Assembly: GCA_046760225.1 (NCBI GenBank)
Contig: JBHIDR010000004.1
Coordinates: 1-38,723 of the forward strand
Source of the DNA: Candidatus Aenigmatarchaeota archaeon
Lineage (GTDB): Archaea > Aenigmatarchaeota > Aenigmatarchaeia > Aenigmatarchaeales > JACQIB01
Direction: 5' to 3'
Length of the DNA: 38,723 nucleotides
Below the pieces are notes generated by a model that did no database searches, was not told the DNA's origin, and worked only from the letters and a program-made list of their open reading frames with translations. The translations under genes were made by a program, and so were the position numbers. Shown here piece after piece: positions 7,044 through 29,013 of the stretch; positions within the stretch are counted from its first letter, which is position 1; each line of letters begins with the position of its first letter.

Positions 7044-7132
7044 TGGTGCGCCCGGCGGGATTCGAACCCGCGTTACAAGCTTGGGAAGCCTATCCGAAAT
7101 TTCTTTGGATCCTACCACTAGATTACGGGCGC
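7044..7132 (-). tRNA. tRNA-Gly(CCC) with 15-nt intron at 29/30 (7090-7104), encoded CCA
   Basis: Spliced: GCGCCCG TA ATCT AGTGGTA GGAT C CAAGC TTCCCAA GCTTG TAAC GCGGG TTCGAAT CCCGC CGGGCGC ACCA. BHB ATCC-AA|A-GAAATTTC-GGAT-AG|G. Confidence 0.92.
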
Positions 7133-8757: not shown

Positions 8758-8844
8758 GGGCCCATAGTCTAGTGGTAGGACAATACCCTTACAGAGGCAT
8801 TAGGATAGGTATAGGTCCCAGTTCGATTCTGGGTGGGCCCACCA
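8758..8844 (+). tRNA. tRNA-Val(UAC) with 13-nt canonical 37/38 intron (8794-8806), encoded CCA
   Basis: GGGCCCA TA GTCT AGTGGTA GGAC A ATACC CTTACA|A GGTAT AGGT CCCAG TTCGATT CTGGG TGGGCCC ACCA; central helix CTTA/TAGG. Confidence 0.93.
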
Positions 8845-21191: not shown

Positions 21192-22430
21192 TTAATATTC
21201 TGAAAGGTTCTTTTGCTTGTGTTCGTAATATTTAATTTCTAGCTTCTTGCCTGGTGGAATCGGTATACCATATACGCCTGCACCACCAGGTATATATCTG
21301 AACTTCCCATTCCTGAAAGCAGATATCAGCTCGCTTGTCCCTTGGTCTATTTTTGCTATATCCTCAATAGGAACCTCAATCAGTACCTTTATTTCGCTTC
21401 CAAAGCTGTCGACAAGCTGCCTCCATAAATCTTGAACCTTGACAGACCAGACATTTGTTATATTCAGGGCTTTTGCTATTATTTCTGAAAGAGGGATTAT
21501 ATGGACGTATTTTGGTCTATGGGAAGGGTGCCTATCTTCTTCAAAGCTAGCAAGCTCCTCTATCCTGAAATCAACCCCTTTCTTAATCGCTCTCTTACAA
21601 TTGGGGCATCTCCAACCAAATCTGGCAGCTTCCTTTGGTTTGAAAAATAACAAACAGCCAGTGCATCTTGTTTTATGGTACTTGCCCTCCAGCGGATTGA
21701 AGCCCACGTTCAGGATACATCTCCTACCACCTTCTCTCTTCAGTGCCTTCCTTATTTCCTCGAAACTGATTCCCTTTATCTGGAGCCTGTTAAATTCTCT
21801 TCCCATTTTGTTTGGCCATGGACTATGGGCATCACTGTTTGTAAGGAATGATAGGTTATGCAACTCAGCTATTCTGTCAGCCATATTGGTATCTGCTGAG
21901 AGGCCCAGCTCCACGAAATGTATTCTCTTCCACTGGTCTCCGTAACAACCCTTGTAAGAATCAAACTTTGCATACAAGCCAAAATAAGGAGTAAAGGCAT
22001 GGGCAAACCCGATAAGGCAGCCAGCTTCGTTGCATATTTCTGCTACCTGCTCTCCGTTTAAGTGTATTTTTGGCCTGCCATCCATGTCCAAGTTCTTACA
22101 ATAATTTTTAAACTTCTCTCTAAGCTCGTACACCTTACTGAAGCTTGGGAACAAAATGATATGATGCACCCTGTTGTTGTCCTCTATCTCTGTTTGTAAT
22201 AAAAACTTTGTTCCATTAGGATGCTCAAGAACATCATCTGCTGTTTGCTTCAGCTGTTCTTTTACCAGTCTTATCCAGCGTTCGTTCAGTATGTCAGCCG
22301 TACCAACAAGGTGAAGGCCTTTAAGTGGTGCCTGTTCCCCGATAACTCGGGGCACCATCTTATCTGATACAGCTCCAGAATACAGGCCATGCAAATGCAA
22401 GTCTGCATTGATCTCGATAAAATCGCTCAT
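21192..22430 (-). CDS. TIGR00375-family PHP-domain protein (endonuclease Q-like)
   Basis: ADLHLHG.YS, VGTAD, RVHH, DGRP, AHAFTP, ELGLSAD, NSDAHSP, GREFN, GKYH..C..C, CPNC..IKKGV, PGGAGVYG. ATG 22430 overlaps the upstream stop (ATGA). Confidence 0.88.
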   Translation of the reverse strand: MSDFIEINADLHLHGLYSGAVSDKMVPRVIGEQAPLKGLHLVGTADILNERWIRLVKEQLKQTADDVLEHPNGTKFLLQTEIEDNNRVHHIILFPSFSKVYELREKFKNYCKNLDMDGRPKIHLNGEQVAEICNEAGCLIGFAHAFTPYFGLYAKFDSYKGCYGDQWKRIHFVELGLSADTNMADRIAELHNLSFLTNSDAHSPWPNKMGREFNRLQIKGISFEEIRKALKREGGRRCILNVGFNPLEGKYHKTRCTGCLLFFKPKEAARFGWRCPNCKRAIKKGVDFRIEELASFEEDRHPSHRPKYVHIIPLSEIIAKALNITNVWSVKVQDLWRQLVDSFGSEIKVLIEVPIEDIAKIDQGTSELISAFRNGKFRYIPGGAGVYGIPIPPGKKLEIKYYEHKQKNLSEY

Positions 22431-23173
22431 TTTCTCGCCCTGAAGATTATTGTTGGTCCAATCTTTCTCGATAAATCCTTGGGATAATATTCTTCCAGCC
22501 CCTTTTGCTCCAACCATAAGGGCTCAATAATTTTTTCAACAAAAAATCCAGCTCCAATCAAAGCATTGTAGATGTCGCTTACTTTTACATGATATCCGAC
22601 AAATTTGTGTTTCTTGCCGTCAGGCCAAACCTCAATTTCTTCATATCTGCCTGTCTTAAAATAGCTCTTCTCAATCCTGTGCGTCTTAATGTTTATCAAG
22701 TCATGAAAAGGATGGGGCATGCTGAACACAAACAGCCCCTTTTTCTTGACTATCCTGTAGACCCCCCTGAATAGCTTTTTAAGGTTCGGAGAATATTGGA
22801 AAGCCCATGCCGAGACAGCCATATCGAAACTGTTGGATTTGAATCTCGTCAAATTTTGAAAATCGCCCTTCACAAACCTGACTTTCACCTTTTCCTTTTT
22901 AGCCAGATTTTCTGCATATTTCAGCTGCTCTTTAGATACATCTATTCCTGTGCATATTGCTCCCCTCTTTGCTAGGGCTATTGAATTTTGACCGCCGCCA
23001 CATCCAACTTCAATTATTTTTTTGCCCTTGACATTGCCAAGCAGCCTTAATTTGCCTTCATTTGGTGCATGCACTCCCCAATGAACAGAGCTTGTAGGTA
23101 TTTTGGCATCCTTTTGAAAATATTGGGAAGATTCATCCCACCATTTTTCTATTATTCTCCTGTCCTTCCCCAT
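22427..23173 (-). CDS. class I SAM-dependent methyltransferase
   Basis: IIEVGCGGG, GIDVS, FDMAVS, GLFVFSMPHPF. Confidence 0.88.
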   Translation of the reverse strand: MGKDRRIIEKWWDESSQYFQKDAKIPTSSVHWGVHAPNEGKLRLLGNVKGKKIIEVGCGGGQNSIALAKRGAICTGIDVSKEQLKYAENLAKKEKVKVRFVKGDFQNLTRFKSNSFDMAVSAWAFQYSPNLKKLFRGVYRIVKKKGLFVFSMPHPFHDLINIKTHRIEKSYFKTGRYEEIEVWPDGKKHKFVGYHVKVSDIYNALIGAGFFVEKIIEPLWLEQKGLEEYYPKDLSRKIGPTIIFRARK

Positions 23174-23183
23174 AAAAACCACA

Positions 23184-23283
23184 TGGTGGGCCGGGGGAGA
23201 ATCGAACTCCCGATCCCTACCGTGTCAGGGTAGTGTCATTTGGTGAAGCTCCTGAAGAAGCTTTACCACTAGACCACCAGCCC
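23184..23283 (-). tRNA. tRNA-Val(GAC) with a ~23-24 nt D-loop intron (~23239-23263), encoded CCA
   Basis: GGGCTGG TG GTCT AGTGGTA[..]TGAC A CTACC CTGACAC GGTAG GGATC GGGAG TTCGATT CTCCC CCGGCCC ACCA; intron hairpin AGCTTC-TTCA-GGAGCT; exact junction ambiguous by 1-2 nt. Confidence 0.9.
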
Positions 23284-24323: not shown

Positions 24324-24599
24324 TCACTTTTTCTTTTTTGGTTTCTTCACTGGCTTCTTCTTTACTGGCTTCCAGGCAGGCATCCTTCTCATGTATGCAT
24401 TTACAAATCTGGTTGCCGCTTTCTTGTCCATTTTCTTTGCCTTCATGAAGAAAACAACCATTCCTTCCTTTACTGCTGCCCTTGACTTCAGCTTTCCTTT
24501 TGTATCAGTGCAGTAAATGCAGTAAACATTCTTCTCATTCCCCCCGCCGTGCTGCTTGGCGGTCTTCATTGGCATACCGCAACTCTTGCAGCTTACCAT
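24324..24599 (-). CDS. putative zinc-ribbon protein with Lys-rich tail
   Basis: CKSCGMPM...YCIYC...MPAWK. Start moved to ATG 24599 because the track's extension overlaps the tRNA. Confidence 0.8.
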   Translation of the reverse strand: MVSCKSCGMPMKTAKQHGGGNEKNVYCIYCTDTKGKLKSRAAVKEGMVVFFMKAKKMDKKAATRFVNAYMRRMPAWKPVKKKPVKKPKKKK

Positions 24600-24634
24600 A
24601 ATAGAATTTGCTTTGAGGGGGTTAATAAAGAAAA

Positions 24635-24830
24635 TGGTGGGCGGGATGAGATTTGAACTCACGACTTCTAGACCGGTTTGGATTCCAGACCGGTTCACTA
24701 GTTGGCCTCGCCACTAGCTTTTCCAGCCAGTGCCTTATAAGACTTGCACGCAGTGCTTAGCGCTCTAATTGCCAAACGCTTGGGTTTCCTGGCTGAGCTT
24801 TGCGGGTCCGTTCGCACGAACTACCCGCCC
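24635..24830 (-). tRNA. tRNA-Ile(UAU) with five introns: 8/9 (24800-24822), 19/20 (24769-24787), 29/30 (24744-24757), 37/38 (24704-24735), 45/46 (24666-24695); encoded CCA
   Basis: Removing 23+19+14+32+30 nt from 196 nt gives a 78-nt cloverleaf: GGGCGGG TA GCTC AGCCAGGTTA GAGC G CTAGT CTTATAA ACTAG TGGTC GTGAG TTCAAAT CTCAT CCCGCCC ACCA. Each junction sits in a BHB-type motif. Confidence 0.88.
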
Positions 24831-24879
24831 TTATCCTCGCCCATGCTATTTTTATTGTTACGCACAGTAATTTAAAAAT

Positions 24880-25788
24880 ATGCTTAAGCATGGTCTTCTG
24901 GACAGGACAGAAAGAATACTGCAGGACGAGGGATATGTCACGTGCAGGTACAGGGGCTGCTTTGACATTGCAGCCAAAAAACACAGGCTGCTTTTCCTGA
25001 AGGTACTGCAGAACATTGACTCGTTTTCCGAGGAGCAGGCAAGGAACCTCAGCATACTGGCAAAGAACATGGCTGCAACCATGTTCCTCATAGGAGAGAA
25101 CACCACAAGGGAGAATCTCCAGGAAGGCATAGTTTATGAGAGGTTTGGCATTGCTGCTGTCTGCTTCGAGACATTCCGATTGTTCCTGAAGGAGGGCATA
25201 TTCCCAAGGATATACAGGAAGAGGGGAGGGCTGTTTGTGTCGATTAATAGGGACACTCTAAGGGAAATGAGGAAGAGCAGGGGGCTCACGCAGATGGAGC
25301 TTGCTGAAATGGTTGGCATAAGCAAGAAGGCAATATACGAGCATGAGGCAAGGAACCTGAAGATGCTGCTCTCAATAGCGCAAAGGATTGAGGACGTGCT
25401 TGAGAAAAAAATAATAAAAAATATTGATATTTCAAAGATTGGAGTTGGTGGGCAGGGCAAACCAGGTGACATGCTTGAGAAAAAGGTGGGCGGTGACCTG
25501 GAAAAGCTCGGGTTCAGCATAGACTTTGTGAAGCAGGCACCTGTTGACATTGTTGCGAAAAAGGAGGCGCTGCTCGTGTCAGACGTGGAGGCAGACAAGA
25601 AGAGGCTGAAGAAAAGGACAGAGGAGCTGAAGGGGTTCATAGGGGTGGCCCAGAAGCCTGCTGTTGTGATAACAGAGGACATAAAGGACAGGGACTCTGA
25701 AATACCCATAGTGCAGAGAAAAGAACTCGGTGAGATGAGTAGTAGGCGCCTATTTAAGATAGCCAAGAAAAGCAGAAAGTATAAATAG
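24880..25788 (+). CDS. archaeal Cro/C1-type HTH transcriptional regulator (COG1395-like)
   Basis: CFDIAAKK..LFLKVLQNIDS, GIVYERFGI, RGGLFVSIN, HTH RKSRGLTQMELAEMVGISKKAIYEHE, APVDIVA. Confidence 0.85.
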   Translation: MLKHGLLDRTERILQDEGYVTCRYRGCFDIAAKKHRLLFLKVLQNIDSFSEEQARNLSILAKNMAATMFLIGENTTRENLQEGIVYERFGIAAVCFETFRLFLKEGIFPRIYRKRGGLFVSINRDTLREMRKSRGLTQMELAEMVGISKKAIYEHEARNLKMLLSIAQRIEDVLEKKIIKNIDISKIGVGGQGKPGDMLEKKVGGDLEKLGFSIDFVKQAPVDIVAKKEALLVSDVEADKKRLKKRTEELKGFIGVAQKPAVVITEDIKDRDSEIPIVQRKELGEMSSRRLFKIAKKSRKYK

Positions 25789-27261: not shown

Positions 27262-27351
27262 ACTTATAATTTATCCTGAATGCTTAAATTCTGGGGGCAT
27301 AGTTTTAAATATACTTGCATGCACATATTTCTGTACAAGGGGGATGATAAT

Positions 27352-29013
27352 ATGGCTAATGGTACGCAAACAGGGCAGCAGCCCATAATTGTTCTGCCAG
27401 AAGGCGCTATGAGGACACTGGGAAAGAACGCCCAGCTGACCAACATAGCAGCTGCAAAGGCGGTTGCTGATGCAGTAAGGACAACTCTGGGCCCGAAGGG
27501 AATGGACAAGATGCTCGTGGACTCTATGGGTGATATTGTTATAACAAACGATGGCGTGACAATTCTTGAGGAAATGCACATAGAGCATCCTGCAGCAAAG
27601 ATGATTGTTGAGGTTGCGAAGACACAGAACGAGGAGGTTGGTGACGGCACAACAACCGCAACAATACTTGCAGGTGATCTCCTGAAGAAGGCAGAGGGCC
27701 TGATAGAGCAGAACATACATTCCAGTGTGATAACAAGGGGGTTCAAGGAAGCAAAGGAAAAAGCACTTGAAATACTCAGGGATATTTCCATGAACGTGGG
27801 TGTTGGTGACACAGAAACACTGAAAAAGATTGCAATAACAGCAATGACAGGCAAGTCAGCTGAAAAGGCAAGCGAACACCTTGCAAACATAGCTGTTGAG
27901 GCAATAAGGCTCATACACTCTGAGGACGGAATAGATATTGGCAATGTCAAGGTCGAGAAGAAGCAGGGAGGCAGCGTTGAGGACACTGAGCTCATAAAGG
28001 GCGTGATAATAGACAAGGAGGTTGTTCATTCAGGCATGCCGAACAGGATGAAGGAAGCAAGGATAGCCCTTGTGGATGCCTCGCTTGAGATAGAGAAGAC
28101 TGAAATAGATGCCCAGATACAGATAACAAGCCCTGAGCAGATGGAGAAGTTCCTTGGCCAGCAGGAAAAGATGCTGAAGGACATGGTGGACAAGATAGCC
28201 AATTCAGGGTGCAATGTGCTGTTCTGCCAGAAAGGTATTGAGGACGTGGCGCAGCACTACCTTTCAAAAAGAGGAATAATGGCAGCGCGAAGGGTGAAGA
28301 AGTCTGATATGGAAAAGCTTGCAAAAGCCACAGGTGCAAGGCTTGTTTCGAACCTGAGTGACATAAGCGAGGCAGACCTTGGAAGGGCAGGCATGGTTGA
28401 GGAAAAGAAAATAGCAGGAGAGGAAATGATATTCGTAAGGGAGTGCGTGAACCCAAAGGCAGTTTCTGTGCTGATAAGGGGCGGAACAGAGCATGTTGTC
28501 GAGGAGATATATAGGGCAATGGAAGATGCACTAGGAGGTGTGGCTGCTTCACTTGAAATAGGAAAAGTGGTTGCAGGAGGAGGAGCACCTGAAGAAGCAG
28601 TTGCAAAAGGGCTCAGGACATTTGCACAGCAGTACTCAGGAAGGGAACAGCTGGCAATACTTGCTTTCTCTGAGGCAATGGAGGTTGTGCCAAGGACGCT
28701 TGCAGAGAATGCTGGCCTAGACCCGATTGACATAATAGTTGCGCTCAGGTCAGCGCATGATGCAGGGAATACAACAGCAGGAGTGGATGTTGCAACAGGA
28801 AAGATAATTGACATGAAGGAAATAGGCGTTATTGAGCCGCTCAAGATAAAGACCCAGGCAATCAAGTCAGCTGCTGAGGCAACAGAGATGGTATTGAGGA
28901 TAGATGATGTGATTGCAGCTGGGAAACTGAACAAGGGGCCTGCAGGTCCTGGCGGAATGCCGCCTGGCATGCCACCTGGAATGGGCGGAATGGCTGGAAT
29001 GGGGGAGTACTAG
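27352..29013 (+). CDS. ths: thermosome subunit (group II chaperonin)
   Basis: [44 protein letters not shown] tail; start ATG 27352. Confidence 0.97.

Follow-up and report, generated by a model that had tools for sequence, protein, structure and literature searches.

The question raised by this locus is how the isoleucine codon AUA is read in an archaeon in whose genome the enzyme TiaS is not found. The stretch studied, here called the window, is an entire 38.7-kb contig of Candidatus Aenigmatarchaeota archaeon, part of an 851-kb assembly (83 contigs, 44% G+C, 83% complete); the closest homologues of its proteins are labelled Candidatus Aenigmatarchaeota. On its minus strand, a fragmented tRNA gene with the anticodon UAU lies about 50 nt from a divergent gene of the COG1395 family. 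Judged from its sequence and its relatives, the locus is very probably a functional tRNA-Ile(UAU) gene, the AUA decoder of an Aenigmatarchaeota-like DPANN archaeon in a phylum that lacks TiaS. Below, G000 denotes the window's own genome, other G numbers the genomes compared, C a contig and L a locus.

The tRNA-Ile(UAU) gene

The 5' acceptor strand GGGCGGG (24830-24824) is followed by U8, and the 3' acceptor strand CCCGCCC comes after a regular T arm. The discriminator A73 is at 24638 and an encoded CCA at 24637-24635. The anticodon loop is the 7-nt CUUAUAA, with U33, U34-A35-U36 at 24739, 24738 and 24737, and a purine at 37. The first-pass annotation of this DNA had reported an anticodon TAT at 24737-24739 together with A73, and both are found at exactly these coordinates on the minus strand. 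The gene is divided as follows; the helices refer to the bulge-helix-bulge (BHB) motif of each intron, and strain substitutions to the variant described further below.

24635..24830, minus strand: tRNA-Ile(UAU) gene, 196 nt including the encoded CCA (sequence, intron-aware search, call on the spliced product, exact sequence in contigs of DNA runs)
24823..24830, minus strand: exon 1, tRNA positions 1-8; acceptor strand the same as in the tRNA-Ile(GAU) paralogue
24800..24822, minus strand: intron 1, 23 nt, between positions 8/9; central helix 4 of 4 pairs, inner 6 bp, outer 0 bp; also present in the tRNA-Ile(GAU) gene
24788..24799, minus strand: exon 2, positions 9-19, 12 nt (BHB parse and intron-aware search)
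24769..24787, minus strand: intron 2, 19 nt, in the D loop after G19 (19/20); central 4 of 4, inner 3 bp, outer 1 bp; five strain substitutions
24758..24768, minus strand: exon 3, 3' part of the D loop, D stem, position 26 and positions 27-29, 11 nt (BHB parse and intron-aware search)
24744..24757, minus strand: intron 3, 14 nt, in the anticodon stem at 29/30; central 4 of 4, inner 2 bp, outer 3 bp; two strain substitutions
24736..24743, minus strand: exon 4, positions 30-37, with the anticodon UAU at 24739-24737 (sequence and intron-aware search)
24704..24735, minus strand: intron 4, 32 nt, at the canonical 37/38; central 3 of 4, inner 1 bp, outer 3 bp, the weakest of the five; two strain substitutions
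24696..24703, minus strand: exon 5, positions 38-45 (BHB parse and intron-aware search)
24666..24695, minus strand: intron 5, 30 nt, in the variable loop at 45/46; central 4 of 4, inner 6 bp, outer 1 bp; five strain substitutions
24635..24665, minus strand: exon 6, positions 46-76, with the remainder of the variable loop, T arm, 3' acceptor strand, A73 and CCA (sequence)

The five-intron parse, spliced by coordinates in a script, gives 78 nt that ARAGORN calls tRNA-Ile(tat). Its cloverleaf is canonical, with a 7-bp acceptor stem and D, anticodon and T arms, and every stem is fully paired when G-U pairs are counted. Isoleucine identity is governed by A73 and the shared acceptor stem, and here the gene matches the genome's own tRNA-Ile(GAU) exactly in acceptor stem, A73 and D loop.

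In its unspliced form the gene escapes the standard tools. Neither ARAGORN with default settings nor Rfam at its gathering score reports it in the window, the Rfam score being 16-19 bits against a threshold of 29. With introns allowed, ARAGORN proposes a tRNA-Phe(gaa) with a 106-nt intron, which finds no support among orthologues and which we rejected because, by our reading, G falls at position 33. Infernal offers another weak tRNA at 24638-24728 (19.2 bits), which combines a pseudo-D-arm in intron 4 with the real 3' half; by our reading the acceptor stem of this tRNA would have two mismatches, and it was also rejected. Scanning the whole genome for CAU, UAU or GAU loops flanked by stems had much too little specificity, and its output was left unused.

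Evidence for five introns

Cut sites were assigned by the rule of the published canonical case, in which two 3-nt bulges on opposite strands flank a 4-bp helix and each contains a splice site, after the second base of the bulge. The central helix is formed by the four bases before the 5' bulge and the four bases before the 3' bulge. Across the five introns, 19 of the 20 central pairs form, intron 4 being one short. This number was reached in 0 of 5000 shuffles of the gene (mean 7.0, maximum 14), and introns of the same length placed elsewhere in the gene scored equally well in 0, 1, 0, 4 and 0 cases for introns 1 to 5. Given their inner and outer helices, most of the introns are relaxed BHB forms in the unspliced context and not the strict hBHBh' form. 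The 'five-step splice' of the first-pass annotation holds as a model, based on BHB geometry, orthologues and a strain variant.

An intron-aware search over all 346 BHB-like candidates, allowing up to five introns, returned three tied best solutions (score 32.0). All three contain introns 1-3 and the loop CUUAUAA; the third has five introns and a 5-nt variable loop. Several results weigh against this last solution and against the gene as we read it. The other two tied solutions keep a variable arm of 20-21 nt, and a time-limited rerun of the solver gave a four-intron parse with a score of 31.0, whose D loop is without A14 or GG. Intron 4 has the incomplete central helix and an inner helix of 1 bp, and the outer helices of introns 1, 2 and 5 have just 0-1 bp. 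In addition, the locus was looked for among RNA runs and none holds it.

These alternative parses would mean that the gene has four introns, either through a single 45-nt cut that leaves an aberrant D arm or through retention of a long variable arm. We regard this as very unlikely. The D loop left by the single cut would be without A14 and G18-G19, whereas the five-intron product has exactly the D loop of the GAU paralogue, which also resembles those of the orthologues. We know of no tRNA-Ile with a long variable arm, and the five-intron variable loop UGGUC is the same as in the GAU paralogue, L004, L006 and L015. Introns 2 and 5 have complete central helices with inner helices of 3 and 6 bp and equally good placements elsewhere in only one and no case, respectively. 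The strain substitutions cluster in these same two introns, and exon 2, which lies between introns 1 and 2, is untouched.

Under the five-intron parse, we also considered placing intron 5 at 43/44. By hand reading, none of five registers there gives a central helix, while 45/46 gives 4 of 4 pairs with the 6-bp inner helix. Second copies of introns 2-5 were searched for in the G000 assembly and none was found; intron 1 alone has one. Five introns in one tRNA gene is extreme but not unprecedented.

Paralogue, orthologues and a strain variant

The second copy of intron 1 is in the tRNA-Ile(GAU) paralogue (G000:C12:3911-4008, minus strand), which has the same acceptor stem, A73, D loop and intron 1 as the UAU gene. 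The paralogue matches window positions 24788-24844 over 57 nt at 96% identity, a stretch that comprises 14 nt of leader, exon 1 and intron 1 as well as the beginning of exon 2. Taken as a whole, the paralogue fixes both the isoleucine identity and the join between exons 2 and 3. The shared 57 nt suggest that the intron-bearing 5' segment was passed between the two isoleucine tRNA genes by gene conversion or copying. Within the leader, at 24842-24835 on the minus strand, there is a degenerate copy of the tRNA 5' end, GGGCGAGG, at the place where the tRNA of the same-genus relative G001 starts; the leader is the same in the GAU paralogue. In G001 (L005) and in G040 (L014) the tRNA-Ile(GAU) gene is uninterrupted, with 76 nt.

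Orthologues of tRNA-Ile(UAU) with the same anticodon occur in 40 relatives. Together with the window's own, the 41 genes are 98-286 nt long and therefore none is intron-free; every one carries an insert at or next to 37/38. A test for an insert right after position 37 was passed by 37 of the 41, and the other four, the window gene among them, fall outside the test for reasons such as an extra intron in the anticodon stem. By our automatic parses, not all rows of which are reliable, no gene has more introns than the window gene with its five, followed by L004 and L006 with four each; both of these also have an intron at the place of the window's intron 5. In the same-genus relative G001 the gene contains one intron, the canonical one, and keeps the same neighbours, COG1395 and, at the opposite end, a zinc-ribbon gene. 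The tRNA-Ile(UAU) genes of many genera share a similar intron of 39-40 nt. At L141 (G023:C11:72020-72780), the 5' exon of tRNA-Ile(UAU) stands beside COG1395 and is followed by a long insert containing an open frame with a LAGLIDADG-like GDGS motif.

The exact UAU gene is present in contigs of four DNA runs from one study, a hydrothermal vent metagenome. These are no independent proof because the source sample may be among them. A contig of run X1 carries a diverged variant that covers 24642-24830 without gaps and has 15 differences. All 14 listed substitutions lie within the predicted introns 2-5, and the 71 exon bases contain none (P about 0.0014). A joint 24521>24635 in the DNA contigs, with a 30-nt side and seven mismatches, probably belongs to another organism and was ignored.

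Probable AUA decoding without TiaS

ATA is a major codon of this genome. In 474 open reading frames (ORFs) of at least 200 aa, it accounts for 8150 of 180911 codons (45 per 1000), which is 59% of the isoleucine codons and the second rank of all codons. The thermosome gene uses 38 ATA against 13 ATT and ATC together. The early remark that ATA is abundant in core genes is thus confirmed by count.

TiaS was searched with the profile TiaS_FLD (PF08489), the Pfam family formerly named DUF1743, which was positive in 4 of 4 archaeal control genomes. No match was found in the window's own genome (0/1; 83% complete), in the relatives (0/61) or in the genomes of the phylum (0/201, of which 92 are high quality). 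This supports the original suggestion that AUA is decoded independently of TiaS. Among the roughly 24 resolved tRNA genes of the 83%-complete G000, no tRNA-Ile2(CAU) was recognised. The sole resolved CAU tRNA (C16:7985-8173) is elongator-Met-like and has four introns. An initiator-like tRNA gene at G000:C18:16738-16907 (plus strand) shows A1:U72 and, at the base of its anticodon stem, three G:C pairs. The sole BHB-consistent splicing of this gene gives the loop CUCAGAA (anticodon CAG), and there is no CAUAA string in it, so that by our parses it does not yield a canonical CAU loop.

Genes for processing the transcript are present. The splicing endonuclease is represented by two adjacent EndA-domain genes (C2:22994-23254 and C2:24053-24328), and the RNA ligase RtcB is encoded at C35:1677-2834. 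We infer from the sequence that tRNA-Ile(UAU) is transcribed, spliced and charged with isoleucine, and the steps would be the following. Transcription probably begins about 10-16 nt upstream, driven by an A/T box that abuts the COG1395 start codon. The primary transcript would carry the five short introns after positions 8, 19, 29, 37 and 45, each foldable as a BHB. The two-subunit endonuclease would cut out the introns, and RtcB would ligate the six exons (8, 12, 11, 8, 8 and 31 nt) to give a tRNA of 75 nt with an encoded CCA. Isoleucyl-tRNA synthetase would charge this tRNA, and its U34 would pair with the A of AUA.

Two points count against such a role. With 83% completeness and about 24 tRNA genes, G000 may still hold a tRNA-Ile2(CAU) or another second AUA decoder. 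Further, haloarchaeal U34 mutants of tRNA-Ile bound AUA, AUG and AUU, according to the excerpted text of PMC3895270, and misreading of AUG would somehow have to be avoided here. Elp3 is encoded in G000, split over two contig ends (C3:46129-46536 and C69:4-1101); as far as visible, the split looks like an assembly break and not a broken gene. Given Elp3, an xm5U-type modification of U34 is possible. By analogy with eukaryotic tRNA-Ile(UAU), the canonical intron of the archaeal genes, present in all 41 genes and in the published ones, may be kept for an anticodon modification that needs the intron and blocks misreading of AUG.

A further alternative is that the gene is a decaying pseudogene full of insertions and that AUA is read by something in the unassembled part of the genome. 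The failure of standard tools to give a tRNA-level score, the incomplete assembly and the degenerate copy of the 5' end in the leader would fit such a history. It is nevertheless most improbable. Once spliced, the gene folds into a perfect cloverleaf, the diverged strain has no exon substitution among its 14 listed differences, and the promoter layout is conserved in relatives. BLAST of the 231-nt region in G000 found no other copy of the gene, ATA is the second commonest codon, and TiaS is found in none of the 201 phylum genomes. We therefore retain a functional tRNA-Ile(UAU) gene as the explanation.

The neighbour of COG1395: tiaS or tRNA-Ile(UAU)

The first-pass annotation had suggested that COG1395 regulators often neighbour tiaS, and had noted that here the divergent partner is the tRNA. 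In print, a 2012 paper notes the co-occurrence of COG1395 with a protein of DUF1743 and tRNA_anti (OB) domains, i.e. TiaS (PMC3424549, Table 1 row 91). In the literature searched, we found no link of COG1395 to AUA decoding beyond that one-line co-occurrence, and no functional test of the family.

We collected 80 COG1395 loci with the 7-sequence alignment A2, the 29-homologue alignment A1 being too divergent for a locus search. These loci are mostly from Asgard and TACK archaea, and tiaS is within reach in only 2 of the 80. Both are from Hydrothermarchaeota, with the two genes divergent and 44-62 nt apart. On three long Asgard or TACK contigs or chromosomes, tiaS and COG1395 are at least about 250 kb apart. 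Among 38 genomes of Hydrothermarchaeota, the divergent tiaS-COG1395 pair is present in 15 of the 23 that have both genes. In a wider archaeal sample, 45 further genomes have both genes: 16 show divergent matches 454-634 nt apart, five have the genes 1.0-3.5 kb apart, and in the remaining 24 they are unlinked. The suggested association is therefore true of many genomes and not universal.

At the window locus the divergent COG1395-tiaS pairing is absent and the partner is tRNA-Ile(UAU). The same partner is conserved among the relatives. COG1395 is present in 44 of the 61 Aenigmatarchaeota relatives, and tRNA-Ile(UAU) adjoins it in 38 of the 42 that could be assessed. These 38 include one co-directional case, two at a distance of 0.8-1.3 kb, two cut by contig ends and one with the 5' exon only. 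The four without the tRNA beside COG1395 are G005, G046, G053 and G059. The pairing is kept although COG1395 identity among these relatives is only 37-55%. In the set from the phylum Undinarchaeota, TiaS is found in 1 of 17 genomes and tRNA-Ile(UAU) lies upstream of COG1395 in 3 of 16. The idea that a single slot next to COG1395 is occupied by tiaS in many archaea and by its tRNA substitute here has survived this neighbourhood survey.

How the slot came to be so occupied is a matter of two readings. In one, tiaS was displaced in situ by the tRNA gene beside COG1395 (divergent, about 50 nt) in an ancestor of the lineage; on the gene order, we give this an even chance. Going further, COG1395 might be functionally tied to AUA decoding, its neighbour being whatever makes AUA readable, and the tRNA gene would then have replaced tiaS by non-orthologous displacement at one locus. 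We put this functional link forward only tentatively and consider it rather less probable. COG1395 might regulate itself and thereby control how much the interlocked divergent promoter delivers; a role as a nuclease-like partner acting on the tRNA itself is less likely than autoregulation. Against the displacement, the step hangs on one or two evolutionary events, and tRNA-Ile(UAU) lies upstream of COG1395 in none of 18 other TiaS-less genomes that have COG1395.

In the other reading the history is neutral. The two promoters, interlocked within about 50 nt and not separable without harm to them, would simply keep the tRNA and COG1395 together, the presence of tiaS at this place elsewhere would be coincidence, and COG1395 would be unrelated to AUA decoding. 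It could as well be right as wrong. The adjacency of the tRNA may trace to one or two ancestral events (Aenigmatarchaeota and the 3 of 16 Undinarchaeota), and the other 18 TiaS-less genomes do not share it. The separation of tiaS and COG1395 in 24 of the 45 wider-sample genomes, with the looser spacing of five more, and the presence of tiaS at just the two Hydrothermarchaeota loci of the 80 also agree with neutrality, as does the lack of an evident operator motif common to both kinds of intergenic region. Coincidence does not readily explain why COG1395 is paired with a protein gene in some phyla and with a tRNA gene in another, the two partners being functional substitutes for one codon. The pairing has also held in 38 of 42 genomes despite the divergence of COG1395, and the pairing with tiaS recurs across genomes of 1.2 to 4.0 Mb.

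Two further neighbours recur near COG1395. The thermosome gene (27280-29013, plus strand) lies downstream of it in the window and likewise in 9 of 10 Aenigmatarchaeota sampled (L172-L181), often with one or two ACT-domain genes between. As a sign of shared ancestry of the two kinds of locus, this neighbour was weak and was not used: L048 has it, and none of eight other Hydrothermarchaeota does. A TIGR00375 gene of the PHP family (21192-22517, minus strand) is about 2.4 kb from COG1395 and is found within about 5-8 kb of it in 17 of the 80 mostly TACK loci (L031-L110).

The COG1395 protein and the divergent promoter region

The two features next to the tRNA gene are:

24880..25788, plus strand: COG1395 / PRK04140-like gene, 302 aa, with a nuclease-like domain, an XRE-type helix-turn-helix (HTH) and a second nuclease-like domain
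24831..24879, no strand assigned: divergent promoter region, 49 nt, with two A/T boxes (sequence; the function of the boxes is deduced from spacing alone)

The protein matches NF003162 over positions 2-307 of 317 (E 7.6e-67, 225.6 bits) and misses the curated equivalog cut-off of 263. The cut-off is reached by none of the 44 homologues among the 61 searched genomes of the class. We filed the window protein as a diverged COG1395 homologue and not as an equivalog because of this score. An HTH_3 match covers residues 127-154. The AlphaFold model has a pLDDT of 93, and comparison of the model with solved structures points to three domains. Residues 1-108 resemble the Holliday junction resolvase Hjc (1gef; Z 8.7, root-mean-square deviation 3.3, 93 aligned) and VRR-NUC (Z 8.8), residues 122-182 resemble XRE repressors (Z about 10), and residues 193-294 resemble the N-domain of TIP26 (2czr; Z 9.1) as well as Can2 nuclease domains. 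The D...K(V/I)L motif is kept, with D29 and K41, in alignment A1 of 29 homologues. This three-domain architecture was predicted already in 2005, as the excerpted text of PMC1189080 states. For the HTH (residues 120-186), the best solved relative by sequence is the archaeal MBF1-like 2mez (E 6.5e-11), and ribosome-bound EDF1/Mbf1 chains match too. By this analogy RNA binding is conceivable, a hint and nothing more.

In the 49 nt between the genes, each putative TATA box lies beside the start of the other gene. The box at the COG1395 start codon is placed for the tRNA, and the A/T box next to the tRNA is, by its spacing, placed for a leaderless COG1395 mRNA. The two-box layout recurs in relatives, and a comparably compact spacer separates tiaS and COG1395 in Hydrothermarchaeota. 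By eye, no operator motif common to the tRNA-type and tiaS-type intergenic regions is evident.

Comparison with known systems

Archaea that read AUA by tRNA-Ile(UAU) without TiaS have been described before, namely Nanoarchaeum, Korarchaeum and ARMAN. For its lineage the window tRNA is ordinary; the degree to which its gene is fragmented is extreme. The excerpted text of the papers gives the following. ARMAN-2, -4 and -5 have tRNA-Ile(UAU) and no tRNA-Ile(CAU) or TiaS (Fujishima et al. 2011, PMC3239211), and Nanoarchaeum equitans and Korarchaeum cryptofilum are the two carriers of tRNA-Ile(UAU) among 167 genomes (PMC6000648). The intron of the ARMAN-2 gene is a strict BHB of 25 nt and is cut in vitro by the organism's own endonuclease (PMC3239211); Korarchaeum has an intron in the UAU gene and none in the GAU gene (PMC6000648). 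Like the window gene, these genes encode the UAU anticodon, carry an intron at 37/38 and occur without TiaS, and in the excerpts no tRNA-Ile2(CAU) is reported beside them. The window gene differs from them in having five introns instead of one, and in serving a genome in which AUA is the second commonest codon. Its divergent pairing with COG1395 goes unmentioned in the excerpts of PMC3239211 and PMC6000648.

Multi-intron BHB tRNA genes are the second comparison. Reportedly, Sugahara et al. 2008 described Thermoproteales tRNA genes with up to three introns. For Asgard families, the excerpt of a preprint gives 'up to five in a single gene' (bioRxiv 10.64898/2026.10.13.758758). The window gene resembles these in its short, protein-spliced introns at canonical and non-canonical positions and in the failure of standard finders, and the genome shares with them an endonuclease of the broad-specificity type, here with two EndA genes. 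Unlike the Thermoproteales and Asgard cases, the host belongs to DPANN, a relative of the same genus has one intron where the window gene has five, and intron 1 and the leader are shared at 96% with the tRNA-Ile(GAU) paralogue.

In eukaryotic tRNA-Ile(UAU) the wobble pseudouridine depends on the intron. Excerpts of two papers give pseudouridine at the wobble position of this tRNA (PMC3895270, PMC3575796). The window tRNA has in common with it the UAU anticodon for AUA and an anticodon-adjacent intron in every gene (41 of 41 here, each at least 98 nt long). The likeness may be trivial because an archaeal BHB always pairs the anticodon with the intron, and the window tRNA is known here from its gene alone. 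In Mycoplasma mobile, U34 of tRNA-Ile2(UAU) is unmodified, according to the excerpt of PMC3575796. There too AUA is read through a UAU anticodon without a C34-modifying enzyme; this case is bacterial and intron-free with U34 shown to be unmodified, whereas the window gene is archaeal with five introns.

The COG1395 protein agrees with the COG1395 / PAB2104 family, as described in the excerpts of PMC1189080 and PMC3424549, in its order of nuclease-like domain, XRE-type HTH and degenerate nuclease-like domain and in the conserved D...K(V/I)L. It differs from the family's co-occurrence with TiaS in that its partner is a tRNA gene, and in its score of 225.6 against 263 bits.

Implications

These results add one more lineage to the known alternative way of reading AUA. 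They also indicate that the reading of a codon as frequent as 45 per 1000 can rest on a gene that would be spliced five times, a point relevant to the question of how fragmented tRNA genes can become at no cost. COG1395, an uncharacterised and widely conserved archaeal family, gains its first concrete and testable functional hypothesis from its pairing with tiaS or the tRNA substitute, and the locus is a possible example of an RNA gene replacing an enzyme gene in place. For annotators, the gene is a warning: standard tRNA finders miss or misname it, so that tRNA complements and the decoding capacity deduced for DPANN archaea are underestimated.

Other features of the genome

Most recognisable tRNA genes of G000 are interrupted, and several reach a length of 170-193 nt, four or five introns being predicted in them. 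Examples are C16:7985-8173, C16:9089-9281, C2:34292-34469 and C18:16738-16907, and in the window 7044-7132, 8758-8844 and 23184-23283. The anticodons given by ARAGORN are wrong for several tRNA genes of G000, and only about 24 tRNA genes were recognised in total. Next to the tRNA-Ile(UAU) gene, a listed Zn_ribbon_2 ORF (24324-24698, minus strand) overlaps its 3' end. Comparison with G001 makes it probable that the Zn_ribbon_2 gene really begins with the ATG at 24599, which follows the tRNA at a distance of 36 nt.

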